From an uncultured archaeon (GTDB lineage: Archaea; Thermoproteota; Bathyarchaeia; Bathyarchaeales; Bathycorpusculaceae), in contig CAWENF010000019.1 of assembly GCA_963810275.1 (NCBI GenBank), positions 64,001-128,000 of the forward strand: a DNA stretch of 64,000 bases, written 5' to 3'. Under the pieces are notes generated by a model. The model had not been told where the DNA came from, did no database searches, and was given only the letters and a program-made list of their open reading frames with translations. Numbering within the stretch: the first letter of the stretch is position 1; each line of letters opens with the position of its first letter. This document shows positions 3,355 through 46,883 of this stretch, piece by piece. A program made the translations under genes and the position numbers.

Positions 3355-3622
3355 ATTTCATCACTTTTATTCTAACAAATGCATTCTCTACAACACCCAT
3401 ATATAGATTAAGGTGCCGTAGAGCTTATTGAAGTAGCATTTAACGCTTAAATTAAACGAGAAACGATAAAAACGTTCTGTTTTTCGGCGAACCTAAAAGC
3501 AAACACAAAACCTCAAGTCCCCTTGAGGCAATTAGCTCTGTGGGTAAGCATCTAACAAAGCTCTCTGCTAACTGCGAACGTTAATATAGACTAAAAATTA
3601 CCGATATAACTGAGCGTTCAAA

Positions 3623-4462
3623 ATGTTCAAAACCGTAGGTTTAGTCGCCCGATACGACCAGAAACCCGCGTTGGAACTAGCGGGCATGCTCGCAGATTAC
3701 CTTGCCAAGAAAGGTCTCGAAGTTTACATAGAAAACACACTTTATGATTTTCTCTCAGTTAAAGCACATTTTGTTCCGCTCACAGAAATGAAAACCGACT
3801 TCATAATCACCATCGGCGGCGACGGCACAATACTACGCACAGCCATAACAATCCCCAAACCCAACACACCTCTTTTAACCGTAAACAGGGGCATAAGGGG
3901 ATTTCTCACCGAAGTTGAACCCGAGTGCGCCTGTGAAGCCGTAGACCTGGTTCTCAGAGGTGAATTCAAAATCGAGAAGTCAGCCAAAATGTCAGTTACC
4001 GCAGGAAAAGAAACGCTTCCCGACGCCTTAAACGATGTAGTAATATCAACGGGTGAACCAGCTAAAATTTTGTATGCAGAAATCTGCAAGGACGACAAAC
4101 CTATCCTCAAATGCCAGGCTGACGGCTTAATCGTAGCTACCCAAACTGGCGCGACAGGGTACTCGCTGTCAGCAGGCGGACCCGTCTTAGACCCTAAGGT
4201 AGACGCTTTTGTTTTAACCCCCATATGCTCTTTAACTGTGTTTCACTCGCTGGTTTTCCCCACCGACTCAACAATAACATTTAACGTGTTGCGACCTCCG
4301 AAGATGCTGGTTTTAATCGACGGCAACTTTCGCAAGCTGATAAGCACCGACAAACTCGTAGTTACCGTAACCAGGTCAAAAAACGTAACTTCGTTTATCC
4401 GCTTCGAACCCAACTTTTATGATCGTCTGCGCAATAGGCTGCTTTTCAAGGGAACCGAATGA
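3623..4462 (+). CDS. nadK: NAD(+) kinase
   Basis: GGDGT, ND and ADGLIVATQTGATGYSLSAGGP motifs. Confidence 0.95.
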   Translation: MFKTVGLVARYDQKPALELAGMLADYLAKKGLEVYIENTLYDFLSVKAHFVPLTEMKTDFIITIGGDGTILRTAITIPKPNTPLLTVNRGIRGFLTEVEPECACEAVDLVLRGEFKIEKSAKMSVTAGKETLPDALNDVVISTGEPAKILYAEICKDDKPILKCQADGLIVATQTGATGYSLSAGGPVLDPKVDAFVLTPICSLTVFHSLVFPTDSTITFNVLRPPKMLVLIDGNFRKLISTDKLVVTVTRSKNVTSFIRFEPNFYDRLRNRLLFKGTE

Positions 4463-4992
4463 GCACACCAAAGAAACCCCATCGTATTGTGGTTTTGGAT
4501 ACGTCGGCGTTTCTGGCAGGCTATGACCCCTTCTCCGCCACAGACAAGCAGATTACTGTGCCCAAAGTTGAGGAGGAGATTTTGCGTAACTCTATGGTTA
4601 AGATGCGGTTTGAAGCCGCACTGGAAAGCGGCAAAGTCAAGGTTGCTGCGCCCTCGGCTGAGGCATCGTCGGCGGCTAAGGCGGAAGCGGGCAGCTCAGG
4701 GGATTTTCACAAGCTTTCCGAAGCTGACATGCAGTTGCTTTCGCTTGCGTTGCAGCTGAAAATGGAGGGACAGAGTCCCCAGATTGTAACTGATGATTAT
4801 TGCATCCAAAATGTCGCCAAACAGCTCCTAGTAGAGTTTAGGGCTTTAGCTACTTTTGGCATTAAGCGCCAACTGGAGTGGGTACGTTACTGTCCAGCAT
4901 GCTACAAAAAATACCCTTCTCAGAGCAAATTAAAAGAGTGTCAAGTTTGTGGTACAGAGTTGAAGAGAAAACCCAAACGACCACCTTCCTAG
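4459..4992 (+). CDS. nob1: Nob1 PIN endonuclease (16S rRNA maturation)
   Basis: VLDTSAF, LSEAD, TDDY-IQN motifs and C-terminal CxxC...CxxC zinc ribbon. Confidence 0.92.
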   Translation: MSTPKKPHRIVVLDTSAFLAGYDPFSATDKQITVPKVEEEILRNSMVKMRFEAALESGKVKVAAPSAEASSAAKAEAGSSGDFHKLSEADMQLLSLALQLKMEGQSPQIVTDDYCIQNVAKQLLVEFRALATFGIKRQLEWVRYCPACYKKYPSQSKLKECQVCGTELKRKPKRPPS

Positions 4993-23543: not shown

Positions 23544-24512
23544 CTAAACAACCAAATCAGCCATGTCTACACTACGCTCATAAATCTGCCGCAGAAAAGA
23601 CACCGTAGACAAAACCTCAGGCAACAGATCCACAGATGATTCCTTCGCCGCCACTTCAATACGCTGGCAGTTATCATCAATCGTTAATCTCATGCCACGC
23701 ACACCTTCTGCCTGCGAGATATCTCTGCTCAAAAACGATTTAAACGCTTGCTCGTTAGCGTCACAGCAGCTAACCTGCAACTCAAGCAGCAATTTACGCA
23801 AGTTCTCAGGAAGCTTATTTGACAACGTCAAAGTGTCAGATGCAATTTGCACGCAGGCATCCCCAATACCTTCTATGAAGCCTGCAGCCAAACGGTAGTC
23901 AAGACACTCAATTGGAGTGATTGCGAATTTTTCGCCAAGCCGCGGATTTTGCAGAATGGTCCTTAGGATTCTAACAAGCAGGAAATAGAATTTATTGTTC
24001 TCTACATCACGCTCAATAACGTTCTTTGCCACGTCAATATCCAAGTTAACAAAAGAGCTAGCCGCATCTCGAATCATACGAGCTGCGCTGGCGTGGTTGC
24101 GTTGCAGAATTTTGCCTGGTGAAGTGAAGGGTTGCTGCATAAGACACTGAAGCGTCATCATCGACGTTGTTTCCTCAACAATCATCAAGCCTGCCAGCAA
24201 GTTAACCGTGGATTTTACCTGGTTGCGAACGTTAGAGTCGATGCGGTCTTTAGCTTCGACGCGGATGATATCGTATCCAAGTAGGTAACGCCCGATGATT
24301 TCGCGGCTCAAGAAAGGTCCGATTTTCAGTGCGGATTCTTTAGGTTGGGGCTCAACGTCAAATTGAGTATCTATGAAAAGTTTACCATCACCTGTTACTT
24401 CCAAGTTGACTTGAGACCCTTTCTGAAGACCGTGTTCTTTAGCCCAATCTCTAGGCAGGCAAACAAAAAAAGTACCTGTGGGAGTCTGCTGGACTTTGCG
24501 AATATCACTCAT
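23544..24512 (-). CDS. phoU: Phosphate uptake regulator PhoU with AbrB N-terminus
   Basis: RKVQQT..GT..V.LPRDWA, YLLGYD and two PhoU repeats; start MSDIRK. Confidence 0.85.
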   Translation of the reverse strand: MSDIRKVQQTPTGTFFVCLPRDWAKEHGLQKGSQVNLEVTGDGKLFIDTQFDVEPQPKESALKIGPFLSREIIGRYLLGYDIIRVEAKDRIDSNVRNQVKSTVNLLAGLMIVEETTSMMTLQCLMQQPFTSPGKILQRNHASAARMIRDAASSFVNLDIDVAKNVIERDVENNKFYFLLVRILRTILQNPRLGEKFAITPIECLDYRLAAGFIEGIGDACVQIASDTLTLSNKLPENLRKLLLELQVSCCDANEQAFKSFLSRDISQAEGVRGMRLTIDDNCQRIEVAAKESSVDLLPEVLSTVSFLRQIYERSVDMADLVV

Positions 24513-24723
24513 AGGGTTGCACCTTGATATAACGTATCTAAACATTTGTGTGCATATATAAATTGCTTAATGCTTAATCGTTAGAAAATAAAAAAATAAA
24601 TCAGAAACATCTTTTTACAGCTATCTGATTACTGGCGCAATTAAGGTAGCGAACAAAAAACAGTAAATAACTCATACACAATACTGCCTAACCATTAAAG
24701 TAACTTGATTATGGGCAGAGCGG

Positions 24724-26352
24724 ATGAGTTCACAAGAGAAACTTAAAGCGGCAATTGAAGCAACAATAACGGCAGGTTACCAGCTAAACAGCGAAGCCTT
24801 TGAGTTCCTAATTCAAAACGCCGAAACCAGCGACCCCTTAGCAGTTATGAATTTGGCGCTAGAAAAAATTTCTGGAATTGCCGATAAGCCGATGTTTATT
24901 GAAAAAGAATTTCTTGAAGCAATTATGCAGCAAGCCACCTTAGGATCCACCCAGGTAGTGGTCGAGCAATCCAGACCAGAGGCGCCAGCCTCACTAATGG
25001 AGGAATCCATACCCACTTCTGAGGAAACAGAGCCAAGTTACCAGCGAAAAATAGAAGATCTACAGGCGAGCGAGGTGGAAAACTCTTTTTTCCCCTACGC
25101 CAAAGACATCCCTTCAGAACTAAAAATAATCGACGACTGCACAGGCAAACTAACCTCAAACGGCAGTCTCGAAGAATACGCAGGCTTATTCCAAGACCGC
25201 TTCAAACGCGTCGAAAAAATACTACGCCAAAGAATGGATGTAAAAGCCGCCACGCCACTAACTGAAGCGCTTAAATCGCAGCCTAAAACCAAACTAAAAG
25301 TCATCTGCATGCTAACTGATAGACGGGACTCAAAAAATAACACAATGCTCTCAGTGGAGGACTTGGGAGGCAGTGCAACCATACTGGTTCCACAGAAAGC
25401 ACCTGAAGAAGTGAAAAAGAAGGTTCTTACCCTTTTACCTGATACGGTGTTCTGCGCTGCCGTAGTCAAAACACGCACTAACCTGCTTATGGCTGAAGAT
25501 ATAATTCTGCCCGAAGTAGGACGAAAAATAGTTCAGAAAGCACAGGAACCCATTTACGCCGTGTTAACCTCAGACATTCATGTTGGCAGCACAAAATTTA
25601 CCAAACAAGCGTTCAGAAACTTTATCCTCTGGCTACGCGGCAAATGGGGACAGCCATGGATGCGAGAAATCGCTGGCAGAGTAAAATATCTACTCATAGC
25701 AGGGGACATCGTGGACGGAGTAGGCATCTATCCCGACCAGCAAAAAGAGCTAACCATTCGCGACGTCACCAAACAATACAATTTTGCAATAAAGTATTTA
25801 GAAAAAGTTCCAGACTACATTGAAATCGTTCTTTCCCCAGGCAATCACGATGCCGCACGTAAATCTCAGCCTCAGCCAGCGATCCCCGAAAGCTATCTTG
25901 CCGCAATAAAAGGCAAAAAAAACATTTACTCTGTTGGCAGCCCATGCTACCTCAGCTTGCATGGCATAGAAGTATTGATTTACCATGGTGTAAGTCTAAA
26001 CGACATCATTGGCGTGGTGCCAGGCATGGATAGTAACTTCCCGCAGAAACCAATGAGTTTGCTTATGCAATGTCGACATTTAGCGCCAATGTATGGAGGC
26101 AAAACAATGCTTTCACCAGAAAACCGCGATTATTTGGTTATAGACAGAGTTCCTGACATTTTCCATTCAGGACACATTCACATTTTAGGCTACTGTAAGT
26201 ATCGCGGCGTGCTTGTGGTAAACAGTGGGGGCTGGCAAGATCAAACTGAGTACATGGAAAAAATAGGGTTGATGCCTACACCCGGTAAAGTGCCAGTCGT
26301 TAATTTGCAGACCATGGAAATTCGAGTGCTGGATTTCATGAAGGAACATTAA
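24724..26352 (+). CDS. polB: DNA polymerase D small subunit DP1
   Basis: SDIHVGS, AGDIVDG, PGNHD, HG, HLAP and GHIH phosphoesterase motifs. Confidence 0.95.
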   Translation: MSSQEKLKAAIEATITAGYQLNSEAFEFLIQNAETSDPLAVMNLALEKISGIADKPMFIEKEFLEAIMQQATLGSTQVVVEQSRPEAPASLMEESIPTSEETEPSYQRKIEDLQASEVENSFFPYAKDIPSELKIIDDCTGKLTSNGSLEEYAGLFQDRFKRVEKILRQRMDVKAATPLTEALKSQPKTKLKVICMLTDRRDSKNNTMLSVEDLGGSATILVPQKAPEEVKKKVLTLLPDTVFCAAVVKTRTNLLMAEDIILPEVGRKIVQKAQEPIYAVLTSDIHVGSTKFTKQAFRNFILWLRGKWGQPWMREIAGRVKYLLIAGDIVDGVGIYPDQQKELTIRDVTKQYNFAIKYLEKVPDYIEIVLSPGNHDAARKSQPQPAIPESYLAAIKGKKNIYSVGSPCYLSLHGIEVLIYHGVSLNDIIGVVPGMDSNFPQKPMSLLMQCRHLAPMYGGKTMLSPENRDYLVIDRVPDIFHSGHIHILGYCKYRGVLVVNSGGWQDQTEYMEKIGLMPTPGKVPVVNLQTMEIRVLDFMKEH

Positions 26353-27581
26353 GAATCTGTTTTACGCGTACCTTTAGGTGTATATGCCAGTAAGGGGGCG
26401 AAGCGTGCGTCTTCACTAAACACATCTTTTATGAGGCTGCGGCTGATTTCAAGGCGGATTTTTTTAGTTCTACCATACCTGCCCATGCTTACCACTTTGG
26501 CATTAACCAGTCCCATGGAATCCAACTCGTTAACTAACGTACCCAGTCTGCGTTGTGTAAGAAGTCCCGAGCCTGTTTCGCCACATAGTTCATTATAAAT
26601 GTCATAGATTTCGCCTGTAGTAGCGCTGGACTTGTTTAGATGATAAACACTTAATAGCACAAGTTTTGACTGGAGGGTCAAGTTTTTGAGGGCGTCAATG
26701 ACACGGTTGTGCTCTATGTGTTTTTCAGCTTGACGTACATGCTCTTCAGAGACCACTTTTAGTCCTTGGCGTTCGGCGACTTCACCTGCAACACGAAGCA
26801 AATCCAAGGCGCGACGTGCGTCTCCATGTTCAGCTGCGGCTAGTGCAGAAGATATGCTTAAAGCCGAGTCGGAGAGTGCACCTTCTTGAAAGGCTATTTT
26901 AGAACGTTCAAAGAGGATGTTTCTTAACTCGCCTGCATCATAAGGGCGGAAAACTAACTCTTCTTCACTCAGTGAACTAAACACACGGGGGTCGAGAAAT
27001 TCTTTGAGGCGCAGGTCATTTGAGATACCTATTATTGAGACTTTGCTTTTATGTAGGGTTTCGTTGATGCGGGTGAGTTCGTACATGAAGGAGTCGCCGC
27101 GGTCTTTGATTAAGGCATCTACCTCATCAAGCACTATTATGAAAATTATGTGTGATTGGTCCAGTCCACTTCGGAACCTGTCAATTACTTCACCTACAGA
27201 GAGGCCTGTAAATGGTATAGATAAACCTACACTTTGACTTAGACTGGCAAATACGCGGTACTCAGAGCCGGTCATGCGGCAGTTTATGTAGCAGAATTTT
27301 ATTTTGGCTCCATACTCTTTTGCTTTGGATTCAAGATGACTTAGAACATATTTTGTGACCGCGGTTTTTCCTGTGCCAGTTTTGCCGTATATGAATATAT
27401 TTGAGCATCGTGCGTCGCGAAGCACTGGCGCAACTGTGGAGCCCAAGAGCCTTATTTGGTCTTCTCTGTGAGGTAACTTTTCAGGTAGATAATCGTGTCT
27501 TAGAACTTCACGGTCTTTGAAGACTTTGGCGCCTTTAACAAATTTGTCGAATACGTCATCTAGTACATTTGAGTTACCCAT
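26349..27581 (-). CDS. cdc6: Orc1/Cdc6 replication initiator
   Basis: GKTGTGKT, LDEVD, GDARRALDLL and wHTH S.GRYGRT. Confidence 0.97.
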   Translation of the reverse strand: MGNSNVLDDVFDKFVKGAKVFKDREVLRHDYLPEKLPHREDQIRLLGSTVAPVLRDARCSNIFIYGKTGTGKTAVTKYVLSHLESKAKEYGAKIKFCYINCRMTGSEYRVFASLSQSVGLSIPFTGLSVGEVIDRFRSGLDQSHIIFIIVLDEVDALIKDRGDSFMYELTRINETLHKSKVSIIGISNDLRLKEFLDPRVFSSLSEEELVFRPYDAGELRNILFERSKIAFQEGALSDSALSISSALAAAEHGDARRALDLLRVAGEVAERQGLKVVSEEHVRQAEKHIEHNRVIDALKNLTLQSKLVLLSVYHLNKSSATTGEIYDIYNELCGETGSGLLTQRRLGTLVNELDSMGLVNAKVVSMGRYGRTKKIRLEISRSLIKDVFSEDARFAPLLAYTPKGTRKTDS

Positions 27582-27610
27582 TATCCCGCTTCCATTTTTT
27601 TCAGAGGTAC

Positions 27611-28189
27611 AACCGTTATTTCTACTGGAACAGATAAAGGCTGTAGTACAAAAAACTTGTTAAAAACAACAATATTTCTTAAAGAAGATGAAAATAACAA
27701 GCAACAACAAAGCGATGCACACACCCCAAGGTTTCGACTGGAAAAATCAGGTTAAATTAAATAAAATCCTATTATTACTCTATACAAAAACTATACTCTT
27801 TATAATAAATTAATTTTTTATATATTAATAATATCTATCCAAAAAATTAAACTGAATCACTGCAAAGTTTTTTTCTGACTTTCCTGAACTCTTTTTTGTC
27901 GCAAAATCCTCCAAAGGAAACATAGGGGTGTGCCTGTGCCATAAAAACCATTGAAAAAAGGGCTAAACTGTCCATGAACTTACTTGAACAACTAAACTAC
28001 TTATCCCTCTTTGTGTAAAACATCTTGAAGCCACTTACCTTGAATTTTTTGCACTGCTTCACATTCACAAAGTTGTGAATACATGTGAAATACCAAAAAA
28101 TCTGACAGCTTAAAACGGCTCTTTTCCTCCGAATTACTATTATTCTGTCACTTAACTGTGAATAAGCCACCCCTACGTTTCTACTGGAA
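27611..28189. other. Replication origin oriC: four ORB elements plus AT-rich DUE
   Basis: ORBs at 27611-27630(-) TTCCAGTAGAAATAACGGTT, 27721-27743(-) TTCCAGTCGAAACCTTGGGGTGT, 27910-27932(+) TCCAAAGGAAACATAGGGGTGTG and 28168-28189(-) TTCCAGTAGAAACGTAGGGGTG. AT-rich tract ~27750-27850 lies between oppositely oriented ORBs, directly upstream of cdc6. Confidence 0.93.
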
Positions 28190-28385
28190 AATCAAAACAG
28201 ACGCACAGCAATTGAGCTTTTTCCATTTCCTAAATTTGTGAAGCTTGTAAAACCAAAAAATGGTTAAATTATGGTTAAAAAGCATAAATAACAATGAAAT
28301 AAGCTTTTTACATTACCTTATTTCACCATCACAGTTATATCCTGTGAAACACAGAGTTTGTGAACAACCTATAGGTGAACGTATA

Positions 28386-28814
28386 GTGCCGGCCCGCAAA
28401 ATGCGCGTGGAGCTCTTCGACAGCGATGGCAATCGATATACCATTGCGTTTGAGGGTCAAGTGACCCGTGATAAAGCTCTGCGGCTGCTTGATCTTGTTG
28501 AGCTTTTAGGCGGCACTCAAGGCGAAGTACCTACGGCAAGCGCTCCAGCAATGCAGAATCGTTCGCTGTCGCGTTTTGAAAAAGTCCAGTTAATTATTCA
28601 GAAAAATTTCCCACTAATCTGGTTTAATTCGAAAGACATCCAATCTCTGTATGAACAGGAGCTAAAAGAACCCGTTAGCTTAAGCACAATTTCCACTTAC
28701 CTTTCCAGAATGGCCACTAAGGGGCTTTTGATGCGAACTGGGACATCAAACAATCTGAAATATAAAACTGCACCAAATATTCCAGTTGCCACCCTTAAAC
28801 AGCGAATAAAGTAG
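28386..28814 (+). CDS. Origin-adjacent protein with C-terminal winged helix
   Basis: GTG start after GGTGA; MPARKMRVELFDSDGNRYTIAFEG N-domain, linker, then F.SKDI...Y....LSTISTYLSRM..KG wHTH. Confidence 0.82.
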   Translation: MPARKMRVELFDSDGNRYTIAFEGQVTRDKALRLLDLVELLGGTQGEVPTASAPAMQNRSLSRFEKVQLIIQKNFPLIWFNSKDIQSLYEQELKEPVSLSTISTYLSRMATKGLLMRTGTSNNLKYKTAPNIPVATLKQRIK

Positions 28815-28889
28815 TTCACAACACTTCAAATTTACTTCACAACTGTTCACATCAAGCCTGTTTTTGTGAAACCAAAAAAAAAGCTGAAA

Positions 28890-29690
28890 CTACTGGGAAG
28901 CCGCCGAGTTTTCAACCCGTTGCAGCAGTGCTTCCATCTCCTTCTTGATGCTATAACGGAAAGGAATCTTGCCGGCTTCCCTTTCCAAATATCCTTCCTC
29001 ATAAAGCTTCTTCATAAGCCGCGCCGTGTGCTCGCGACTAAGCTGTACCCTCTCCTTAATCTCTGGTGCAGTCTTTGAGCCCTCTTTTGAGAGCATCTCC
29101 AATACAACAATCTCCGTCTCCGTCAAAGCGGCTAGTGCTTTATCCCTCTTAATGGGTATAGGCGGCAACGCCATCTCCACCGGTGCAGTCTGCACCTGAA
29201 TCTGCGGCGGGGTCGCGGCTATCTTCTCAATTTTCTCCTCATATTCCGAGATTTTGAATTTGAGAGTTTCCTGAATAACTTCAATTTCTTTGAGTTTAGC
29301 CTCTAATCCCGTTAAGCCAGAAAGCACTGTGGCGTTGTTTTGCGTGTTTTCTACTAGCTTCTCTGTGACGGTCTGTGCCATGTCTTGGTAGGATATGTTT
29401 AGGCTGCTGATTTGGCTGGTTAGGGGTTCTAATTGTTTTTCTATGGATTCATATTTTCGGTAACTCAATTCCGAGGTCGTGAAGGCGCCGTCAACTTTAG
29501 ATGTCATAGAATCAAACTTTGCTGATTCTCGTTTAAGTTCACGGTCAAAACTCAGCACAATATCTTGGATGAAATCTCTAGCTTTGACATATTCTTGGTG
29601 AGCGAGGCGTATTTGCTTGTAGTATTGGTAGGCTGAAACTGCGGTTACAGCTAATAAAATGCTTAAGATTACTGGTGTGAGGTCAACCGT
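28890..29690 (-). CDS. Membrane-anchored coiled-coil protein with C-terminal wHTH
   Basis: Frame open to ~29720, adding TM VDLTPVILSILLAVTAVSAYQYY; long coiled coil; LTETEIVVLEML...TAPEIK...LSREHTARLMKKLYEEGYLER wHTH; putative ACG start. Confidence 0.8.
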   Translation of the reverse strand, partial: TVDLTPVILSILLAVTAVSAYQYYKQIRLAHQEYVKARDFIQDIVLSFDRELKRESAKFDSMTSKVDGAFTTSELSYRKYESIEKQLEPLTSQISSLNISYQDMAQTVTEKLVENTQNNATVLSGLTGLEAKLKEIEVIQETLKFKISEYEEKIEKIAATPPQIQVQTAPVEMALPPIPIKRDKALAALTETEIVVLEMLSKEGSKTAPEIKERVQLSREHTARLMKKLYEEGYLEREAGKIPFRYSIKKEMEALLQRVENSAASQ

Positions 29691-29845
29691 GATGTTCTCC
29701 CCCTGTGATTTTGCCGTGATTTAACCGTGATAACCATGTGATTCGCCGTGATTTCAACAGTTGCATCACACATCACATTATTTTCCATGAAAATATAAGG
29801 TTATCGGTCACTTAATCCAGTAATAACATGACATCACACATCACA
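29689..29845. repeat. Phased GTGAT direct-repeat array plus inverted ATCAC copies
   Basis: GTGAT at 29689, 29705, 29716, 29727, 29738 and 29748; CATCACACATCAC twice (~29764, ~29832). Confidence 0.85.
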
Positions 29846-30002
29846 ATACTTTAACGTTTTATAAGTAGCCTAATATTAATGCTTACAGAAAGCTTGAATT
29901 AGCCTCATTTTGACTTTTAGAGCCTTTAAAAAGACGTAATTTTAGACATAATTTTCATCATAAAAAGAGGAAAAAAAGGATAGAAACCTGTGATTTGTGA
30001 CG

Positions 30003-30482
30003 TCACAAATCCTCTTTTGAGGGGCTAGAAAGCCGTTTTAGGCTTGTTTCGAGCTCATTTCGGATGATTTCTATGACTTTTATATGATCTTTTAGTTCCT
30101 CTTCCTTGCTAGGTACATCCTGGTGAGCCTCCACATATTCGTGCAGTTTATTGGCTATTTCGAGATACGGGTCAAGAGTTGTGGTCTCAAAAACCCCCAA
30201 ATAACCTAGAAGTAGCACTGTATAGATGGATTTAATGACGTTTTCACGGGACTGTTTTAAAGTCCTATTAAAGCTTCCGCGGCTTATTTTAGCCTTAGTT
30301 AGTCGTAAGGCTGCTTTTTCATCGTAATTTAGCTGTTTCCCTGATAAATTCTCCGATAAAACGTCAATAAGGAGTGTTTCTAACTGGGTTTTTGTTAGTT
30401 GGCTATTTTTAGCCAGTATTTGAACAATGGGGTCGTTTAATGCCCCGTTTAACCATGCTGTTACGCCGTCTCTTAGCTTCAA
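30003..30482 (-). CDS. Conserved archaeal HTH (Tfx-like) protein
   Basis: LTKTQLE...ISRGSFNRTLKQSRENVIKSIYTVLL resembles the Tfx/sigma-region-4 HTH; GGAGG SD upstream. Confidence 0.7.
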   Translation of the reverse strand: MKLRDGVTAWLNGALNDPIVQILAKNSQLTKTQLETLLIDVLSENLSGKQLNYDEKAALRLTKAKISRGSFNRTLKQSRENVIKSIYTVLLLGYLGVFETTTLDPYLEIANKLHEYVEAHQDVPSKEEELKDHIKVIEIIRNELETSLKRLSSPSKEDL

Positions 30483-30845
30483 AGTGCCTTATTCCTCCAT
30501 ATGCAAAATGGATACAATTTTGTATACACTACTTGGGTTTTTAAATCTTTTCCGAGCGCTAAAACCATCATACCTGCTTTTAAAACACTTGAATTAACGC
30601 TATTCTCACTAAATAAACCTGGTGGTGACCTATTTGTTAGAAAGGAGCATAAATCAGTACAGTTAACATATAAACGGCTATTTCCTTGGTAATTTTTTCA
30701 ACAAAAAACCCTCAACTTTACACAAAAAATGCACTATCGCAAACACTCCAAAAATCTTCACCTGACATTTTTGACATACAAAGCGAAATAACACACACTT
30801 TTCAGCACTAATTTACCATTAAGACACACTTTCAAAGCCCAAAAC

Positions 30846-30942
30846 TCACATGTGACATCGCCAAAAACCCCGTGACCTCACCAAATCACGCCAAAATCAC
30901 CGTGATTTCACCCAAATCACAGCCTTGTGATGCACCTGTGAT
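30846..30942. repeat. TCAC/GTGA repeat and palindrome cluster
   Basis: TCACATGTGA at 30846; TCAC at 30878, 30886, 30897, 30908 and 30917; AAATCAC-C-GTGATTT; GTGAT at 30927 and 30938. Confidence 0.8.
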
Positions 30943-30976
30943 ACCAAAAAAGTAAGCAGAGTTTATATGCAAAAGT

Positions 30977-31810
30977 CTAAATCTGCTCAGAAAGCTCATT
31001 GAGTTTCTCATAGAGTTCAGGCCGAAGATCCCGAATAGTCGGAATAAAAGTCTCCGCAGTTTTCAAATCACCAAAATCCACGTCAGTAACCACAAAATCC
31101 TCAACATCGTACTTAGCTATGGCCAAAACATCACCTGTTGGACCCACAAGACGGCTTCCGCCCCAAAACTGCAAGCCATCTTCCATTCCGCCAAGGTTCA
31201 CATAAGCCAAAAAGGCAGTGTTCTCTATTGCGCGGGCAGCGGTTAAGATTTCGAAGTAGCTTCTGCGTATGGCTGGCGACGCTGAAATGCAGATTAAGAG
31301 TTGAGCCCCCATAAGTCTGGGTAACCTGAAGACTTCTGGAAAGAATACGTCATAACAAATTGTTAAACCAATAGTCCCAAGTGAGGTCTGCAGAGCTGCA
31401 GGTTGGTAGCCGGGTCGGAAGTAGCGTTTCTCCTCGAACACGCTATGAGTTGGCAAATACATTTTGCGGTACTTCCCCACATAGCCTTCTGGGCTGACCA
31501 GCACGGCGGTGTTGTAGATAGTAGCTTGAGTTTTCTCGCTGACCTCAGGCATCCCAAAAACAACGTGCACGCCAGTAGCTTTGCTTAGTGCTTCAATTTT
31601 GTGCACGGAGGGTCCAGGGATCACCTCAGCCAGCTCATAGACTTGGTCGTGGAGAACGTAGCCTGTGAGGGACATCTCTGGGAAAATTGCCAAGTCTGCG
31701 CCCTGCTCTTTTGCCTTCCAAGTGAGTTCTTTGATTTTTTGGAAGTTAGATTGTTTGTCTTCTCTTTTTGGTGTAATTTGGCAGAGGGCGAGCTTGACCT
31801 TGTTTTTCAT
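30977..31810 (-). CDS. Carbon-nitrogen hydrolase (nitrilase superfamily)
   Basis: FPE, YRK and ICYD catalytic E-K-C triad. Confidence 0.93.
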   Translation of the reverse strand: MKNKVKLALCQITPKREDKQSNFQKIKELTWKAKEQGADLAIFPEMSLTGYVLHDQVYELAEVIPGPSVHKIEALSKATGVHVVFGMPEVSEKTQATIYNTAVLVSPEGYVGKYRKMYLPTHSVFEEKRYFRPGYQPAALQTSLGTIGLTICYDVFFPEVFRLPRLMGAQLLICISASPAIRRSYFEILTAARAIENTAFLAYVNLGGMEDGLQFWGGSRLVGPTGDVLAIAKYDVEDFVVTDVDFGDLKTAETFIPTIRDLRPELYEKLNELSEQI

Positions 31811-31822
31811 TGGTATTTCCTT

Positions 31823-32665
31823 CTAGTAGAAATGTCTGGGTAGTCTAAAATCATTTCCTACCGTTCGGAACCCCAATTTCGGCGCAAGTGGCATGCGGCG
31901 TTTGTGCTCGGTTGAGAGCCAGCGATCTTTGACTTGGCCGACGATTGCTTCTTTGATTTGCAGTTGCTCTGCAATTTCTTTTGGTTCCATGAAGCGTTCC
32001 AGCCCGAAGAGGATTAAGTCCAGAGTGTCGTATTTGATTTCAAGTTCGGCTTCTGCTAGCTGGTTTGGCCAAAGTGACGGTGTGGAGGGTTTCATGGCGA
32101 GTTCCTCTGGAACACCTAGGTGGTGGGCTAGTCTGCGGACTTGAGTTTTGTAGAGGTCAATTATGGGTGCTATGTCGGCTGCGGCGTCTCCCCACTTGGT
32201 AAAGTATCCCATCATCGTTTCAGATTTATCTGAGGTACCTGCGACGATGCATTTTTGGTGATTGGCGTAGTAGTATAGATAAATCATGCGGGTTCGGGCT
32301 TTGATGTTTCCTTTGGAAACCCTGTCCGATGGGTCAAACGGGGGAATGCCCATGTAAAAGTTTTCGAGGACGGGCGTGAGGTCACAGACTTGGGTTTGCA
32401 GCTTGAACTGCTCCGCTACTTTGTTTGAATCGTTTATGTCTTTTTGGTTGAAGGTTTCCCCTTCAGGCATTAAAAGCGCCAGGACGCGGTCGCCTCCCAA
32501 CGCTTTACTTGCCAGTGCAGCTATAGTGGTGCTGTCAACTCCTCCAGACAAACCAAGCACTACGCCTTCTGCTCCCAAGTTTTCTATGTATTCTTTTATG
32601 AAACGGCAAATTCTGGTTTCTGCTTCTGCAAAATCAATATTTAAACAGGCAGGGGTTAATTTCAC
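31823..32665 (-). CDS. nadE: NH3-dependent NAD+ synthetase
   Basis: GLSGGVDS, GNIKAR.RM, GYFTKWGD and EHKR motifs; likely GTG start at 32665. Confidence 0.95.
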   Translation of the reverse strand: MKLTPACLNIDFAEAETRICRFIKEYIENLGAEGVVLGLSGGVDSTTIAALASKALGGDRVLALLMPEGETFNQKDINDSNKVAEQFKLQTQVCDLTPVLENFYMGIPPFDPSDRVSKGNIKARTRMIYLYYYANHQKCIVAGTSDKSETMMGYFTKWGDAAADIAPIIDLYKTQVRRLAHHLGVPEELAMKPSTPSLWPNQLAEAELEIKYDTLDLILFGLERFMEPKEIAEQLQIKEAIVGQVKDRWLSTEHKRRMPLAPKLGFRTVGNDFRLPRHFY

Positions 32666-32763
32666 GCTGAATTCAGCCTCCCATTCATGGTTAGTAGGCA
32701 AGTATTTAAGGACAAGGATAAATAATAATGCAACATTATTCAAAAGAATAGAAGGATGTTTAG

Positions 32764-33027
32764 ATGGGGCGTCGAAGGAAAAAAGTTGTTCATATTCCAA
32801 AGAAAAAGCTTCCCAAGTTCTTTTCTTGCCCCACATGCGGCAAAGAAACCGTCCGCGTAGAGATTTATCGTGAAGAAGGCGGACGTTCCGTTGCGCAATG
32901 CAGCAGTTGCGGGCTTAAAGAGGAATTTACCATAAAACCCGCACAGGGCGAAGTAGATGTTTACTGCATTTTAACGGACCGTGTTTATGGCAGCCAGAAA
33001 AGAACTCCTGCAGCTGAAGGCATTTAG
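32764..33027 (+). CDS. elf1: Transcription elongation factor Elf1
   Basis: MGRRRKK...FSCPTC...CSSC...VDVY. Confidence 0.9.
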   Translation: MGRRRKKVVHIPKKKLPKFFSCPTCGKETVRVEIYREEGGRSVAQCSSCGLKEEFTIKPAQGEVDVYCILTDRVYGSQKRTPAAEGI

Positions 33028-33039
33028 AGGACCAAAGCT

Positions 33040-33783
33040 ATGGTTGGTGCAATCGAGCGGTACTTACTAGACAAAATCAAAGTCGACGGCTCAATCCACA
33101 TGACCCTAATCGACCCAGAGAATGTCACGCCAGATGAAGCCACCCACATTGCAGAAGTGTCAAAGAAATGCGGAACCGCAGCCGTCATGATTGGCGGTTC
33201 TACAGTTGCGTTACAAAGCCAACTTGACGAAGTTGTCAAAGCAATAAAAGCCAAAGTCGATATACCAACGATTCTTTTTCCTGGTAACGTTAACGGCATA
33301 AGCCGCCACGCCGACGCCATCTGGTTTATGTCTATGATTAACTCTCAGGAACCCTACTTTTTAGCAGGCGCCCAAATCCTGGGTGCACCTTACATCAAAA
33401 AGTTCGAAATTGAACCCATCCCAATGGGTTACATCATCGTAGGCGAAGGCGGCACCGTGGGCAGAGTCGGAAAAGCCAAAACCATTCCTTACAGAAACCC
33501 GCAGTTAGCCGCAGACCACGCCCTAGCTGCGCAGTATTTTGGCATGCGGTTTGTTTATCTTGAGGGAGGTTCTGGTACCACTCAACCCGTGCCACACGAA
33601 ATGATTCGTCAAGTCAAAAGCGCCACCAACGTGGTCCTCATAGTGGGGGGTGGCATCCGCTCCAAAGACCAGGCGATAGCCGCAGCAGAGGCAGGGGCAG
33701 ACATAATTGTTACAGGCAACTTGACCGAATCAAGCGACTGCAACGAGCGCATCCTGCAGATTATCCAAGCCATTAAACACTAA
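33040..33783 (+). CDS. Geranylgeranylglyceryl phosphate synthase
   Basis: TLIDP, GGST, YLEGGSG, VGGGIR and VTGN motifs. Confidence 0.95.
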   Translation: MVGAIERYLLDKIKVDGSIHMTLIDPENVTPDEATHIAEVSKKCGTAAVMIGGSTVALQSQLDEVVKAIKAKVDIPTILFPGNVNGISRHADAIWFMSMINSQEPYFLAGAQILGAPYIKKFEIEPIPMGYIIVGEGGTVGRVGKAKTIPYRNPQLAADHALAAQYFGMRFVYLEGGSGTTQPVPHEMIRQVKSATNVVLIVGGGIRSKDQAIAAAEAGADIIVTGNLTESSDCNERILQIIQAIKH

Positions 33784-33861: not shown

Positions 33862-36800
33862 TTGAACATCACAAGCGGCATAAGTAAAGGATACCGAGAC
33901 TACGTACAAGGCATGGAAGCAGAGCTAAGAAAGCTCTACGAAATCAGCGACGCCGCCCGCAGCCGAGGGCTAGACCCCGCATTGAAAACGGAGTGCATTG
34001 AGGCTCAGGACATAGCTGACCTCGTCGAAGGACTCGTTGGCCCTAAAGGTGTAGCTGTTAGCATCCGTGAGTTGAGTAAAACTAAGCCCCGTGAAGAAAT
34101 CGCTTTTTATGCGGCCAAAGAAATCGCCGAAGGTAAATTCGCCCAAACCGACGAAGAACGTCATGAAGAAAAGCTGGCTGAACAGGCGATCCGTACTGCG
34201 CTGGCAATTTTCACTGAAGGCTTAACAGCGGCGCCCATTCAGGGCATCGCGCAGGTGAAGGTTAAGAAGAATGCTGACCAAACCCGTTATCTGGGCATCT
34301 ACTTCGCTGGGCCCATTCGCAGTGCGGGCGGCACCGACCAGGCGCTGACGCTGGTGGTGGGCGACTATGTGCGCCGCGCCTTGCACCTTGACATGTACAA
34401 ACCTACGGAGGAGGAGATTTCCCGCTTCATAGAGGAGTTGCGGGTTTACGAACGTAGCGTGGGGCGTTTTCAGTACCACATTCCTGATGGCGAACTCAGA
34501 AAAGCTTTAAATCTTGTCCCAGTTGAGTGCACAGGCACAGAATCCGATCCCGTTGAAGTCTCATCATACCGCAACCTTGAACGCATCGAAACCAACAGAG
34601 TCCGCGGCGGAGCCCTGCGTGTCATAAACGATGGTATCGTGGGCCGAGCCCAGAAGGTTTTCGTTATTGTGGATAAAATTGGGTTCCACGAATGGGATTG
34701 GCTTAAAAATTTTAAAAAGAAATCGGAGAAGAAGTCTGGTGGCTTTATGGACGACGTTATCGCCGGCAGACCCATCTTTGCATTTCCCTCCACCCGTGGC
34801 GGCTTTCGACTCAGATATGGCCGCTCACGCAACACAGGGCTCTCAGCCGTGGGTATCCACCCAGCCGCTATGTTTGTCGTAGAGAGCTTTCTAGCCGCGG
34901 GCACTCAGATGCGCCTTGAGTTGCCCGGTAAAGGAGGCGTCACCATGCCCGTGGACAGCATCGAGAAACCCGTGGTTCTGCTAAAAGACGGCTCCGTGGT
35001 GCGGGTGTCTCTTGAGAATTTTCCTTCAGTTAAGGATAGAATCCAGAAAATCCTCTTTTTAGGTGACATGCTTATTGACTTCGGTGATTTCCTCTACAGT
35101 AACAAGAGTCTGCCACCGTCGGGTTACGTGGAAGAGTGGTGGACAAAAGACCTTCAAGCCGCGGTTGCCTCAAGCTTTGGCGGCGACATAGGCAAAGCTG
35201 CGCAGGCATGCGAAATTCCAGATAGCCGCCTTGAAGATTTTCTACATGACCCCTTCAAAAACAAACCCGCCGCCAATGAAGCCATCTCCATAAGCCAGAC
35301 GCTGGGGGTTCCTTTGGGACCAAACTGCACATTTTACTGGACAAACCTCACCGAGTCGAAGGATGTGGAGGTTCTACGCAAGTGGATAGCCAACTGTGAT
35401 GTCGAGTCGGCGGATGGTTATGCCCAGAAAATAACAGGTGACGTTGATCAAGACGTAGTTAATGTGTTGCGTAAAATCTTTGCTCCTCATAAACTGGTTG
35501 AGGATAAGATTGTGATGTCAGGCGAAGATGCCGCCGCATTTGCGTTTACGCTTGGTTGGGGCACATCACGGATAGATGCGTCTGTCGAAGCGGAAACGGT
35601 GCTTGAGCTGCTTTCAAAACTGTCAGGCGTCACAGTTAAAGACAAAGCTCCCACCTACGTAGGCGGACGCATGGGCAGACCCGAAAAAGCCAAACACCGC
35701 GAAATGCGCCCCATGGTTCATGTCCTCTTCCCTGTCAGTTTAGCGGGAGGCAGTCACCGTGACCTATGTGCAGCAGCCAAAAAGAATCTCATTTCTGTTG
35801 AGATGGTGAGGCGCAAATGCCCGGAATGCAAAACTTATACAATTAAACTCAAATGTGACAATTGTAGCGCCGAAACGGTTCATGAGCAATCATGCCCGAG
35901 ATGTGGCAGAACCCTAAAAGAAGGCTACTGTGGCACATGCAAAGCCGAAGGGGTTCTTTACCAGAAGCAAACTGTGAACTTTAAAAAACTGCTTGATACC
36001 GCTTGCAAAAATATAGGCTGTCCGCCGCCCAAAATGCTTCGTGGCGTCAAAGGTTTAACCAACTTCGATAAAACGCCTGAGCTGATTGAGAAGGGGCTTC
36101 TGCGCGCCAAATACGGAGTATCAACCTACAAGGACGGCACGATTCGTTTTGACGGCACAAACGCACCGCTCACGCACATCACGCCTGAGGAAATCGGGGT
36201 TTCTGTTGAGAAGATGCGCCAAATGGGTTACTTGGCTGACACTTACGGTTTACCCCTCACCAGCCCAGAGCAGATCTGTGAACTAAAAATCCAAGACGTC
36301 GTGATACCCAAGTCGGCAGGAACCTACCTTGTGCAAATTGCAGGCTTTATTGACGAACTCCTCACTAAAGTCTACAAGCTTTCTCCCTACTACAATGCCA
36401 AGAGCCCCGACGATATGGTGGGGATGCTCATCTTCGGCTTGGCACCTCACACGTGCGCCTGCATCCTTGGCAGAGTCGTCGGTTACACCGACCGCAACCT
36501 CATCTATGCCCATCCCGTCTGGCACTCAGCCAAACGCCGAGACTGCGACGGCGACGAAGACGCAATCATGCTTGCCTTAGACACCCTCATCAACTTTTCC
36601 CGCGTATTCTTGCCCAGCCAAATCGGTGGCATCATGGACGCCCCTATCCTTATGATTCCGTTTTGCAACACCAAAGAGGTGCAGCGCCAAGCCCACGATT
36701 TTGATGTCAGTCACACTTATCCTCTTGAGTTTTACCGTAAAACATGGGAGAAAGACGAATCCCGTAAAGTCAGTGCTTTCATGGACACCATTAGCCATCG

Positions 36801-37296
36801 TCTCAGCACAGAAGGACAGTTTGAGGGTTTCCAGTTCACCACTCCCACAACAAACATCAACTTCGGAAACGCAAATAGCAGCTACAAAGAATTCAAATCC
36901 ATGAAAGAAAAACTCAACATGCAGCTTTCTTTGGCAGAGAAAATCGATGCCGTCGACGCTAAACAGGTTGCGCTAAAAGTTCTCAACTGCCATTTGATGC
37001 GTGACATCGTAGGTAATATGCGTGCGTTCTCAACTCAGGGATTCCGATGCAAAGCATGCAATGCCAAGTACCGACGTCTACCGTTGGGGGGCAAATGTAT
37101 GCGCTGTGGCGGAGCGCTCACTTTGACAGTGTATCGAGGTAACATTGAGAAGTATCTTGGTGCTGCTCAGGAACTGGTGGATAAGTACGGGTTGGCTAGC
37201 TACTACACGCAGCGTATGGATCTGATTAAGGCGGAGTTGGAGCTGATGTTTGACAACAAGAAGCCTAAGCAGGCGAAGCTGTTTGATTTTGGTTAG
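33862..37296 (+). CDS. polC: DNA polymerase D large subunit DP2
   Basis: AGPIRSAGGT, GFRLRYGRSRNTG, RMGRPEK, KRRDCDGDED and zinc fingers. Confidence 0.98.
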   Translation: MNITSGISKGYRDYVQGMEAELRKLYEISDAARSRGLDPALKTECIEAQDIADLVEGLVGPKGVAVSIRELSKTKPREEIAFYAAKEIAEGKFAQTDEERHEEKLAEQAIRTALAIFTEGLTAAPIQGIAQVKVKKNADQTRYLGIYFAGPIRSAGGTDQALTLVVGDYVRRALHLDMYKPTEEEISRFIEELRVYERSVGRFQYHIPDGELRKALNLVPVECTGTESDPVEVSSYRNLERIETNRVRGGALRVINDGIVGRAQKVFVIVDKIGFHEWDWLKNFKKKSEKKSGGFMDDVIAGRPIFAFPSTRGGFRLRYGRSRNTGLSAVGIHPAAMFVVESFLAAGTQMRLELPGKGGVTMPVDSIEKPVVLLKDGSVVRVSLENFPSVKDRIQKILFLGDMLIDFGDFLYSNKSLPPSGYVEEWWTKDLQAAVASSFGGDIGKAAQACEIPDSRLEDFLHDPFKNKPAANEAISISQTLGVPLGPNCTFYWTNLTESKDVEVLRKWIANCDVESADGYAQKITGDVDQDVVNVLRKIFAPHKLVEDKIVMSGEDAAAFAFTLGWGTSRIDASVEAETVLELLSKLSGVTVKDKAPTYVGGRMGRPEKAKHREMRPMVHVLFPVSLAGGSHRDLCAAAKKNLISVEMVRRKCPECKTYTIKLKCDNCSAETVHEQSCPRCGRTLKEGYCGTCKAEGVLYQKQTVNFKKLLDTACKNIGCPPPKMLRGVKGLTNFDKTPELIEKGLLRAKYGVSTYKDGTIRFDGTNAPLTHITPEEIGVSVEKMRQMGYLADTYGLPLTSPEQICELKIQDVVIPKSAGTYLVQIAGFIDELLTKVYKLSPYYNAKSPDDMVGMLIFGLAPHTCACILGRVVGYTDRNLIYAHPVWHSAKRRDCDGDEDAIMLALDTLINFSRVFLPSQIGGIMDAPILMIPFCNTKEVQRQAHDFDVSHTYPLEFYRKTWEKDESRKVSAFMDTISHRLSTEGQFEGFQFTTPTTNINFGNANSSYKEFKSMKEKLNMQLSLAEKIDAVDAKQVALKVLNCHLMRDIVGNMRAFSTQGFRCKACNAKYRRLPLGGKCMRCGGALTLTVYRGNIEKYLGAAQELVDKYGLASYYTQRMDLIKAELELMFDNKKPKQAKLFDFG

Positions 37297-45638: not shown

Positions 45639-46883
45639 TTATTTTATGAGCCCATACCCGATGAGTCTCCATCGGGCAGTGATTTTTCTACTGATGGCAA
45701 CTCGGCTGCCCGGTAGGGCGCAAATAGGTCTTGTTAATTTGACTTTCAGTTGGTTCTGCTTTATGTTGATAACTTTGCCCACGTTAACCGCTGCACCGAT
45801 GTGTAGCAGCAACGCCTCATCAGGGTTGATTTTCTCGACCTTCTGCAACTCCTTGCTGCCTACAACGCGTTCAAGTACGAAAGTGTCCATAGTGATTTCG
45901 GTTACGGTGGGCGGCAACATGCCTGACTTGCCTGCAATGCTTCCAGTTAAGCCATCTGCTTTAGAGTAGGATGGGTCAAGCAGAGTGCCTACTCCGACGA
46001 GTCCGCCGCAGGTGGCTTCTTTGACGTTTTTCTCTCCAGCGTGTAGACTGACGATTTCGCTAACCAATGGGTCGTAAACGGTTTTGCCTTCCCGTTCCGT
46101 CATGATGCCTGGGCGAATCTCAATTTCTTCACCGACAGCAAATTTTCCCTGCACGATGGTTCCGCCGATGATGCCGCCTTCTATGTCGTCGATGGTTGTG
46201 CCTGGCTTGTTAATGTCAAAAGAGCGGATGATATACATTAACGGTGCCACGTCGGGATTGCGGTGTGGCGTTGGGATGATGGCTTGTATAGCCTCTAATA
46301 GGACATCGACGTTTATGCATCGCTGCGCCGAAATCGGAATGATGGGTGCGTTCTCCGCTACAGTCCCTTTAACGAACTCTTTAATTTCCTTGTAGTTTTC
46401 CAACGCGCGTTGGCGGTCTACGATGTCGATTTTATTTTGAACAATAATGATGTTTTTCACGCCACTGACTTCTGCCGCTGCAAGGTGCTCGCGGGTCTGA
46501 GCCTGCGGGCAGGGCTCGTCGGCTGCGATGACGAGGATGGCGCCGTCCATGATGGCTGCTCCGGAAAGCATTGTTGCCATAAGCGCTTCGTGTCCGGGTG
46601 CGTCGACGAAGCTTATTGCGCGCACAAACTCGGCGGGTGAGTTGCATTTTTCACAGACTGGTTGGATGGTGTAGTTGTTGGGTGGCGGGCACTTGGTGCA
46701 TTGGAAAATGGGCATATCTGCATAGCCAAGTTTGATGGTGATGCCTCTTTTGAGTTCTTCACTGTGACGTGACGCCCAAGTGCCTGTTAACGCTTGGACA
46801 AGAGTGGTTTTGCCGTGGTCAACGTGACCGATGGTGCCTATGTTGACTTCTGGCTGCTTGGGTAGGGCTTTGGCGTTACTCAT
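45639..46883 (-). CDS. eif2g: Translation initiation factor aIF-2 gamma
   Basis: GHVDHGKTT, RGITIKLGY, DAPGHE, QNKID and WRLIGYG. Confidence 0.98.
   Translation of the reverse strand: MSNAKALPKQPEVNIGTIGHVDHGKTTLVQALTGTWASRHSEELKRGITIKLGYADMPIFQCTKCPPPNNYTIQPVCEKCNSPAEFVRAISFVDAPGHEALMATMLSGAAIMDGAILVIAADEPCPQAQTREHLAAAEVSGVKNIIIVQNKIDIVDRQRALENYKEIKEFVKGTVAENAPIIPISAQRCINVDVLLEAIQAIIPTPHRNPDVAPLMYIIRSFDINKPGTTIDDIEGGIIGGTIVQGKFAVGEEIEIRPGIMTEREGKTVYDPLVSEIVSLHAGEKNVKEATCGGLVGVGTLLDPSYSKADGLTGSIAGKSGMLPPTVTEITMDTFVLERVVGSKELQKVEKINPDEALLLHIGAAVNVGKVINIKQNQLKVKLTRPICALPGSRVAISRKITARWRLIGYGLIK

Follow-up and report, generated by a model that had tools for sequence, protein, structure and literature searches.

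Three uncharacterised genes lie beside a putative chromosomal origin in an uncultured archaeon of the class Bathyarchaeia, and the gaps between them are crowded with short GTGA/TCAC motifs. Do these genes and motifs form a single device that holds the origin at the cell membrane, or a set of self-regulating factors, or something in between? We analyzed a stretch of 64,000 nucleotides (contig CAWENF010000019.1 of assembly GCA_963810275.1, positions 64,001 to 128,000), hereafter the window, in which the three genes, called A, B and C, stand next to an orc1/cdc6 gene and a cluster of origin recognition boxes (ORBs). A preliminary description of the window had proposed one three-gene DNA-binding module acting on one class of repeats, with the product of B tethering the origin to the membrane. 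In our analysis the locus is instead three protein-motif pairs, not one module: B would bind two phased arrays, regulate itself and hold the DNA at the membrane, C would regulate itself, and A would act at the origin. We assign this reading as a whole a probability of about 0.45. The genome searched comprised 2,257,982 bp in 28 contigs, that of the window being 219 kb long, and comparisons covered 20 loci of the same genus or order, 151 genomes and 61 loci centered on C from the class, and 201 genomes from the phylum. Enrichments in Nitrosopumilaceae were computed over 66 of 80 loci, the 14 loci shorter than 6500 bases being left out.

The four intergenic gaps of the locus contained 43 GTGA/TCAC motifs in 1682 bp (2.56 per 100 bp), while the rest of the window contained 344 in 60,609 bp (0.57 per 100 bp), a 4.5-fold difference in density. 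The densest 100-bp intervals in the 64 kb were 30841-30940, with 11 motifs, and 29681-29780, with eight. Next came three intervals with five motifs each, two of them in this locus (starting at 28321 and 28061) and one at 46731, and then the interval at 28811 with four. In the whole genome, only the two densest intervals reached six or more motifs per 100 bp, and the Poisson expectation for eight or more motifs was 0.04 intervals genome-wide. The statement of the preliminary description that the motifs are dense in these gaps and not similarly clustered elsewhere was thus borne out. The five motifs at 46731-46830 lie inside a coding region, and about 69 such intervals are expected genome-wide by chance.

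The motifs had been treated as a single class, but they fall into two: the ORBs and A are accompanied by GTGAA/TTCAC, B and C by GTGAT/GTGAC. The second class amounts to about 25 GTGAY half-sites within 1.3 kb, arranged as two 11-bp-phased arrays, three double boxes and one palindrome (Table 1). Array 1 abuts and overlaps the 5' end of B, with half-sites starting at 29705, 29716, 29727, 29738 and 29748 (steps of 11, 11, 11 and 10 bp). Array 2 lies just past the stop codon of the CN-hydrolase gene, about 400 bp upstream of C, and includes half-sites starting at 30885, 30896, 30907, 30916, 30927 and 30938. The half-sites therefore do keep a 10-11 bp register, as the earlier term phased implied, and the genome-wide scan found the arrays to be unique in the genome and conserved in position. 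All three genomic copies of the double box TGTGAYNTGTGAY lie in the B-C gap. GTGAYRTCAC also has three genomic copies, one of which overlaps the stop codon of C; the other two fit chance (about eight expected from base composition, three seen).

The arrays kept their position in all 20 genus and order loci, where intervals of 5-11 GTGA/TCAC per 100 bp were found at the same two places, and the same elements reappeared in the gaps of these relatives. In two further complete Bathyarchaeia genomes, the pattern GTGAY-N5-7-GTGAY-N5-7-GTGAY was found only just upstream of B, and the reversed control of this pattern gave 0 matches in both. In one family of the class, f24 (33 of the 151 sampled genomes), the array upstream of C lies within the NadE coding sequence (L064:9276-9400; also L066, L070 and L082), and the NadE frame is preserved despite about 10 GTGA/TCAC per 100 bp. 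Since this array sits inside a reading frame, selection on the DNA itself is pointed to. Between array 2 and the promoter of C, about 350 bp (30560-30840) are non-coding and contain genus-conserved blocks, with a TATA-like block near 30660. Relatives at the level of the order have an aminotransferase gene and an open reading frame of 109 aa at the equivalent place; the latter matched no family in Pfam, and no counterpart of it was found in this genome.

B is the best candidate for the binder of the GTGAY arrays. The architecture of its product comprises a predicted N-terminal single-pass membrane anchor, a coiled coil of about 110 aa, a Pro-rich linker and a C-terminal winged helix-turn-helix (wHTH) domain of MarR/TrmB type. 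Residues 190-249 exceeded the Pfam cut-offs for both MarR (33 bits, cut-off 24.6) and TrmB (28.1 bits, cut-off 25.6), and the best match of the wHTH among PDB sequences was a MarR protein (E 2e-3). A typical MarR/TrmB regulator is a soluble dimer of about 150 aa with flanking dimerization helices. The wHTH of B is above the cut-offs of that class, but a predicted anchor and a coiled coil precede it; B belongs to the MarR/TrmB wHTH superfamily in its domain, not in its architecture. In two other families B is short, with the anchor and the wHTH and no long coiled coil, and is translationally coupled to C. In public sources the family of B goes by "MarR family transcriptional regulator" or by "chromosome segregation ATPase", the latter name drawn from the coiled coil; no name listed there leads to experimental work. 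A single metatranscriptome run, in which 7% of the sampled words were present, yielded one 246-nt contig inside B (29055-29300), from a library that may contain DNA, and gave no transcript ends.

The transmembrane segment ascribed to B in the preliminary description was also predicted by hydropathy and the positive-inside pattern. The hydrophobic 19-mer of B has a Kyte-Doolittle hydropathy of 2.16, with 0 Lys/Arg before it and two in the next 15 residues. An N-terminal 19-mer of this kind was present in 19 of the 22 B sequences (hydropathy 1.9-2.8, 0 Lys/Arg before, 2-6 in the 15 residues after), and only 0-9 residues precede the hydrophobic stretch. This pattern predicts an anchor with its N-terminus outside and its C-terminus inside, leaving almost nothing outside the membrane. 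In the lineages that bear the predicted anchor, B is likely to be membrane-anchored. The coordinates first given for A and C stood, as did the extent of B apart from its start at 29690. That start is non-canonical, since the first ATG, GTG or TTG of the frame is a GTG at 29558 and the transmembrane helix is encoded upstream of it, at about 29630-29693. At the 5' end of B, close relatives have a GGAG-like stretch and, after it, a conserved ATC or ATT with ACG next; relatives align with B over residues 1-267, the hydrophobic N-terminus included. These features suggest that translation of B begins at a non-canonical codon overlapping the first GTGAT repeat.

The presence of B and the presence of GTGAY elements went together. 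Of 43 loci with B, 42 had GTGAYRTCAC at most 1.5 kb from C, compared with 2 of 18 loci without B, and the maximal GTGA/TCAC density per 100 bp had a median of 8 in the former and 4 in the latter. When seven B-less genomes were searched whole, five yielded no B and two yielded only weak coiled-coil matches. Among 22 aligned homologues from the class, the recognition helix of B was invariant, and across the class the motif was as constant as this helix. Outside the class, the 245 nt upstream of B in Nitrosopumilaceae were enriched 22-fold in GTGAT and 27-fold in TGTGA (66 loci). From this concordance, B probably binds GTGAY half-sites. The B gene of Nitrosopumilaceae itself (L131-L210, around 3400-3500) contains, in the codons immediately preceding those of the recognition helix, four to five TCAC/GTGA, TCACGTGA among them, which may reflect a coding constraint or an internal site.

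Gene C is paired with a motif of another kind. Of 61 loci, 59 had the palindrome ATAC-N6-GTAT upstream of C, mostly at a distance of 33 nt from its start and regardless of whether A or B was present. The genome contains four such palindromes, that of C included. In 12 loci outside the class, the strict form was found in seven, and a TACA-N5-TGTA core was recognized by eye in ten. The protein itself was predicted as an all-alpha fold with a possible helix-turn-helix (HTH) and a C-terminal helical hairpin (predicted local distance difference test, pLDDT, 87). C had no match in Pfam, NCBIfam or PDB sequences, and a Pfam search over 27 C members gave nothing consistent. Foldseek against the PDB returned nothing below E 1, with weak TFIIB/cyclin rows, and a wide VIA-align search matched the C-terminal helical hairpin alone (Z below 8, generic). 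The only hints of a sigma-70 region-4 or Tfx-type HTH in C were a weak Atlas lead (0.78), to a cluster with Sigma70_r4 in 14% of its members, and our reading of its sequence pattern against that of Tfx. Because C has no family hit, the label "Tfx-like" that it had received is unconfirmed.

The third pair concerns the origin. The locus is a putative chromosomal origin on sequence grounds, made up of Cdc6 plus ORBs. Its Cdc6 has AAA+, lid and C-terminal winged-helix domains, as expected for an archaeal Orc1/Cdc6-ORB origin, and the Cdc6 orthologues beside the cluster in relatives were 51-93% identical. An AT-rich stretch at about 27750-27900 sits between the inverted ORBs at 27724 and 27909, and the ORBs of the locus account for 3 of the 10 genome-wide matches of a relaxed ORB pattern. 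TTCAC/GTGAA sites are interspersed here and around the promoter of A (Table 1); one further GTGAA, at 28375, is probably the Shine-Dalgarno sequence of A. Of the 16 genome-wide copies of TTCAC-N15-21-GTGAA, three fall in 28064-28870. The layout upstream of A was kept in all 38 relatives' loci inspected: nearly all had an ORB-like element within about 330 nt upstream of A, and most had a TTCAC-N5/6-GTGAA palindrome beside the ORB G-string as well as TTCAC/GTGAA around the TATA-like box of A. The gene was found solely next to ORBs and, where the contig reached that far, next to an orthologous Cdc6. The convergent A-B gap is not expected to contain a promoter; its half-sites at 28815-28870 vary among relatives, with at least two sites in only 7 of 14 comparable short gaps.

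In Nitrosopumilaceae, the gap between A and Cdc6 (L131-L210, around 4250-4800) contained GTTAAC 312 times, compared with 2.8 expected, a 112-fold enrichment. These repeats were found in 65 of 66 loci, at places equivalent to those of TTCAC/GTGAA and interleaved with ORBs; they form a second origin repeat class. The model of A shows an N-terminal beta-beta-alpha unit followed by a winged HTH (pLDDT 71), and its C-terminal domain resembles the wHTH of MecI, BlaI and RosR (Foldseek E about 3e-3). Of the wHTH assignments made previously, that of B rests above family cut-offs, but A scored 17.1 bits against Penicillinase_R, whose cut-off is 22.6. Among 19 A homologues, 16 matched Penicillinase_R weakly (best E 3e-5) and five matched Cdc6_C (best E 2e-3). 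A predicted complex of Cdc6 and A scored 0.00, which carries no weight for or against binding. We infer that A binds the TTCAC/GTGAA sites.

The reading that we prefer joins these pairs into the following mechanism. Beside the origin there would be three site-specific DNA-binding proteins that evolve separately and act each on its own motif. A would bind TTCAC/GTGAA both next to the ORBs and over its own promoter, and would serve as an origin-specific accessory or regulatory factor that also regulates itself. C would be transcribed ahead of B from the same strand, and would regulate itself via ATAC-N6-GTAT near the predicted transcription start. B would be inserted in the membrane by its N-terminal anchor, with the N-terminus out and the bulk of the protein in the cytoplasm, and its coiled-coil stalk would carry the MarR-like wHTH onto the GTGAY half-sites. 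Many B molecules could load on one face of the DNA, covering the promoter and 5' end of B and so leading to autoregulation. Because B is predicted to be anchored in the membrane, the DNA that it covers, 1.5-3 kb from the ORBs, would be kept at the cell membrane as well. The assignment of proteins to motifs, the membrane insertion, the tethering and any role in positioning or segregation are what we infer from the features above; that the tether serves origin positioning or segregation seems somewhat unlikely.

Several observations weigh against this reading. Plain autoregulation explains much of what was found, because the arrays cover the promoter and 5' end of B and because, elsewhere, GTGAT stands at the promoters of C-B operons. 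Nitrosopumilaceae have one array, directly upstream of B. No motor ATPase of the CbiA/ParA family was found on the 219-kb contig; the genome has 11 matches to that family, all on other contigs, in agreement with the absence of a parA/segA gene noted earlier for this locus. In f34, the B proteins (3 of the 22) have no anchor, and the arrays are retained. Two B-less loci (L063 and L095) still have the GTGAYRTCAC palindrome, and the co-occurrence counts overstate the evidence because related genomes are not independent. No DNA-binding fold was recognizable in C by fold or family searches. A comparison of GTGAA sites by the presence of A had little power: their number had a median of 5 in 40 loci with A and was 1-3 in the loci with Cdc6 and no A, of which there were just three.

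The family f24 adds to these points, since its B/C system has no recognizable adjacent Cdc6-ORB origin. In the three f24 genomes searched (G170, G161 and G142), the sole Cdc6 was a distant paralogue of 30-32% identity, which in the complete, single-contig genome G170 lies about 340 kb from B and C. The ORB pattern had no match within 20 kb in the f24 loci L064, L066, L068, L070 and L082. Two loci in which Cdc6 is present (L071 and L123) escaped this pattern too, and its sensitivity is therefore limited. In f24, gene A seems to have disappeared along with the orthologous Cdc6. Since f24 keeps B, C and the arrays without A, an orthologous Cdc6 or a detectable ORB, the arrays are not always linked to an origin.

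These points lead to the best-surviving alternative, a purely transcriptional circuit. A, B and C would then be ordinary autoregulated factors in a conserved island of replication genes, the arrays extended operators of B and C, and the anchor a means of merely sequestering or regulating B, with no structural role. Every motif class does overlap a promoter, be it that of A, B or C; in other classes, the promoter bearing GTGAT is that of a translationally coupled C-B operon; the single array of Nitrosopumilaceae is placed as an operator of B would be; B has a MarR-family domain by Pfam and is so named by the sources; and f24 retains the system with no detectable origin beside it. On the other hand, 8-11 phased half-sites per 100 bp, about 25 in total and unique to the locus, exceed the needs of a simple operator. 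Array 2 is about 400 bp from any promoter, and in f24 it is inside a coding sequence. The anchor has no outside sensor domain, given the few residues that precede it, and yet is conserved across classes. Finally, linkage to the genes of Cdc6 and PolD was found in at least two classes. We regard this explanation as possible, short of an even chance.

A second alternative is the single three-protein anchoring or segregation machine of the preliminary description, in which B would bind all arrays, those at the origin included, and A and C would be cofactors. The three genes are indeed adjacent beside the origin. The synteny with cdc6 and the ORBs, which the description had put forward as a check, was found in 19 of the 20 genus and order loci, in many class loci, in Nitrosopumilaceae and in other Thermoproteota, and the GTGA core is common to all its motifs. 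In those 19 loci the full order was PhoU-PolDs-Cdc6-A-B-C-CNhydrolase-NadE-GGGPS-PolDL, and the contig of the remaining locus ends early. B was found in 35 of 41 genus and order relatives. Four loci from four other families (L122, L125, L127 and L128) have the order Cdc6-A-B-C, and complete Nitrosopumilus-type genomes have PolDL-GGGPS-C-B-A-Cdc6-PolDs. The most constant feature was C followed by B on one strand.

The distributions of the three genes, however, differ by family, and A, B and C are therefore not an obligate unit. Counted over one set of 151 class genomes, C was present in 126, B in 107 and A in 87; at the level of the phylum, C was present in 99 of 201 genomes. Families f24, f21 and f30 have B and C but no A (0 of 33 in f24), families f14, f23, f26 and f27 have A and C but no B, and family f20 has A alone. 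The motifs followed the same partition: in B-less loci, GTGAA upstream of A persists and the GTGAY palindromes vanish, and in Nitrosopumilaceae the repeat at the origin is now GTTAAC, with that on the side of B still GTGAT. Each protein thus pairs with a different motif, and a partition ATPase is absent from the contig. With distributions and motifs both divided in this way, we consider a single machine improbable. In other genera of the order, and in one genome of the same genus (L014), two further genes stand between A and B on the strand of A. One is NurA-like, with a product of 341 aa (weak PF09376), and the other encodes a HerA/DUF87 ATPase of 527 aa (PF01935 E 1e-12); the pair is at L015:6018-8595, L014:5979-8514 and also in L024, L025, L026 and L029. 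The HerA-like ATPase was not found in this genome with that query.

The arrays might also be iterons of a second origin or of an integrated plasmid or virus remnant, with B or C as its initiator or copy-control protein. Direct repeats phased at 10-11 bp by an AT-rich stretch, double boxes in inverted orientation (29765-29846 versus 29989-30006) and the long, very AT-rich C-B gap of f24 would all fit such an element. The genes, however, are single-copy and keep a conserved synteny with core genes in the class and beyond, and on this ground a mobile element or second origin was rejected. No integrase, Rep or helicase gene was found among the neighbors identified around the locus, the NurA/HerA-like pair is restricted to some relatives, and neither A, B nor C has an initiator-like domain. 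We consider this origin of the arrays very improbable. To an action of the repeats in the B mRNA, as a 5' leader that is structured or bound by protein, we give hardly any credence: array 1 would be transcribed because it is placed between the predicted promoter and the start of B, but the half-sites occur in both orientations, in a convergent gap, downstream of C and within unrelated coding sequence of the opposite strand, and an Rfam scan of 27500-31100 gave no match at E up to 1.

Table 1. Coordinates of genes and sequence elements of the locus, numbered from the first letter of the window.
Feature	Position	Strand	Details
PhoU-like gene	23544-24545	-	
PolD small subunit	24724-26352	+	
Orc1/Cdc6	26349-27581	-	Pfam Cdc6_C 85.1 bits, Cdc6_lid 82 bits, AAA domains
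ORB cluster / oriC (putative)	27620-28189	none	
Mini-ORB	27620		from sequence
ORBs with G-string	27724, 27909, 28170	+, -, +	from sequence and pattern scan
TTCACA-N4-TGTGAA palindrome plus one extra GTGAA	28058-28089		
TCAC-N6-GTGAA palindrome	28147-28162		8 nt from ORB G-string
Single GTGAA	28238		
Inverted repeat	28322-28364		across the TATA-like box of A
Gene A	28386-28814	+	142 aa, GTG start
Four TTCAC/GTGAA half-sites	28815-28870		convergent A-B gap
Gene B	28890-29693	-	reading frame open to ~29723
Array 1	29689-29752	+	six GTGAT half-sites, single orientation, steps 16, 11, 11, 11, 10 bp
Two ATCACACATCACA double boxes	29765-29846	-	flank TATA-like box at ~29795-29805; putative B promoter and operators
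TGTGATTTGTGAC double box and GTGACGTCAC palindrome	29989-30006	none	overlap C stop codon
Gene C	30003-30482	-	
ATAC-N6-GTAT palindrome	30512-30525		between TATA-like box of C (~30545-30552) and its start codon; putative C operator
Array 2	30845-30942	both	11 GTGA/TCAC half-sites, 11-bp register
CN hydrolase	30977-31810	-	
NadE	31823-32836	-	
GGGPS	33040-33783	+	
PolD large subunit	33862-37296	+	

Next, we compared the locus with known systems. RacA-ram and ParB-parS resemble the proposed B-array complex in that a dedicated protein acting on repeated origin-proximal sites positions the origin. RacA reaches the membrane through DivIVA, with ram sites scattered across hundreds of kb; ParB contains a CTPase/ParB domain and is partnered by ParA. 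No match to a ParB-family domain was found in A, B or C, and the neighbors of the locus (Cdc6, the PolD subunits, the PhoU-like protein, CN hydrolase, NadE and GGGPS) include no actin- or tubulin-like NTPase. By these sequence features, membership in ParABS, SegAB or type II/III partition appears to fail, there being no ParB domain and no adjacent NTPase. In the iteron-type centromeres ParR-parC and TubR-tubC, direct repeats of 10-12 bp lie on one helical face over the promoter of a small, autoregulated binder. TubR and the archaeal AspA of pNOB8 are wHTH proteins, and these systems are plasmid-borne with ParM, TubZ or ParA motors. Array 1 has the same layout of phased 10-12 bp direct repeats over the promoter of its putative binder, and AspA aligned with the wHTH of B at E 0.6-0.7. 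Unlike those centromeres, the locus is chromosomal, has no adjacent NTPase and has a binder that is predicted to be membrane-anchored.

Membrane-bound one-component regulators, such as ToxR/CadC and the archaeal ArnR, have sensor domains and act on few local promoters. B is like them in carrying its DNA-binding domain on a membrane-anchored polypeptide, and unlike them in having no outside sensor; moreover, their DNA-binding domain is N-terminal, whereas that of B is C-terminal. RicO of Staphylococcus aureus, which acts with ricS, combines an N-terminal DNA-binding domain with a C-terminal amphipathic helix (bioRxiv 10.64898/2026.03.06.710092). RicO and B, if B acts as predicted, would share the joining of a sequence-specific DNA-binding domain and a membrane element in one protein, origin-proximal sites and the lack of a dedicated motor. 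B differs from RicO in its predicted N-terminal transmembrane anchor, coiled-coil stalk and C-terminal wHTH, and in having its sites within about 1.3 kb. The closest systems in working principle would be the origin-membrane tethers (RicO-ricS, RacA) and the binders of iteron-type centromeres (ParR, TubR, AspA). For A, the system to compare is WhiP at Sulfolobus oriC3, a Cdt1-related initiator that replaces Cdc6 at its origin (PMC4010727). A is like WhiP in being a winged-helix protein encoded beside an origin and specific to it, and unlike WhiP in its length of 142 aa, in standing beside a Cdc6-ORB origin and in having weak Cdc6_C-like matches alone. The full-text literature within reach contained nothing on the module; subscription-only papers, among them the original Nitrosopumilus origin-mapping paper, and supplements were outside that reach.

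A wider reading extends our preferred one across lineages. B would polymerize on the unique phased array beside the replication genes and fix the origin region to the envelope, and A would bind a second repeat class interleaved with the ORBs. The B-array complex would then be a motor-less, centromere-like site of membrane attachment of the chromosome, conserved from Bathyarchaeia to the ammonia-oxidizing Nitrososphaeria, and A an origin cofactor modulating Orc1/Cdc6. We put this extension forward as distinctly unlikely.

The locus bears on two questions: how chromosomes are positioned and segregated in archaea outside the SegAB-bearing lineages, and what acts at archaeal origins besides Orc1/Cdc6. 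It presents three uncharacterized, widely conserved proteins with precisely predicted sites beside an origin, one of them predicted to be membrane-anchored. A second repeat class among the ORBs (TTCAC/GTGAA here, GTTAAC in Nitrosopumilaceae) would alter the annotation of such origins. Nitrosopumilaceae include cultured strains, and since the arrangement is also found in them, the predictions are directly testable. In conclusion, the locus is a testable candidate for a system that regulates or anchors this part of the chromosome in such archaea.

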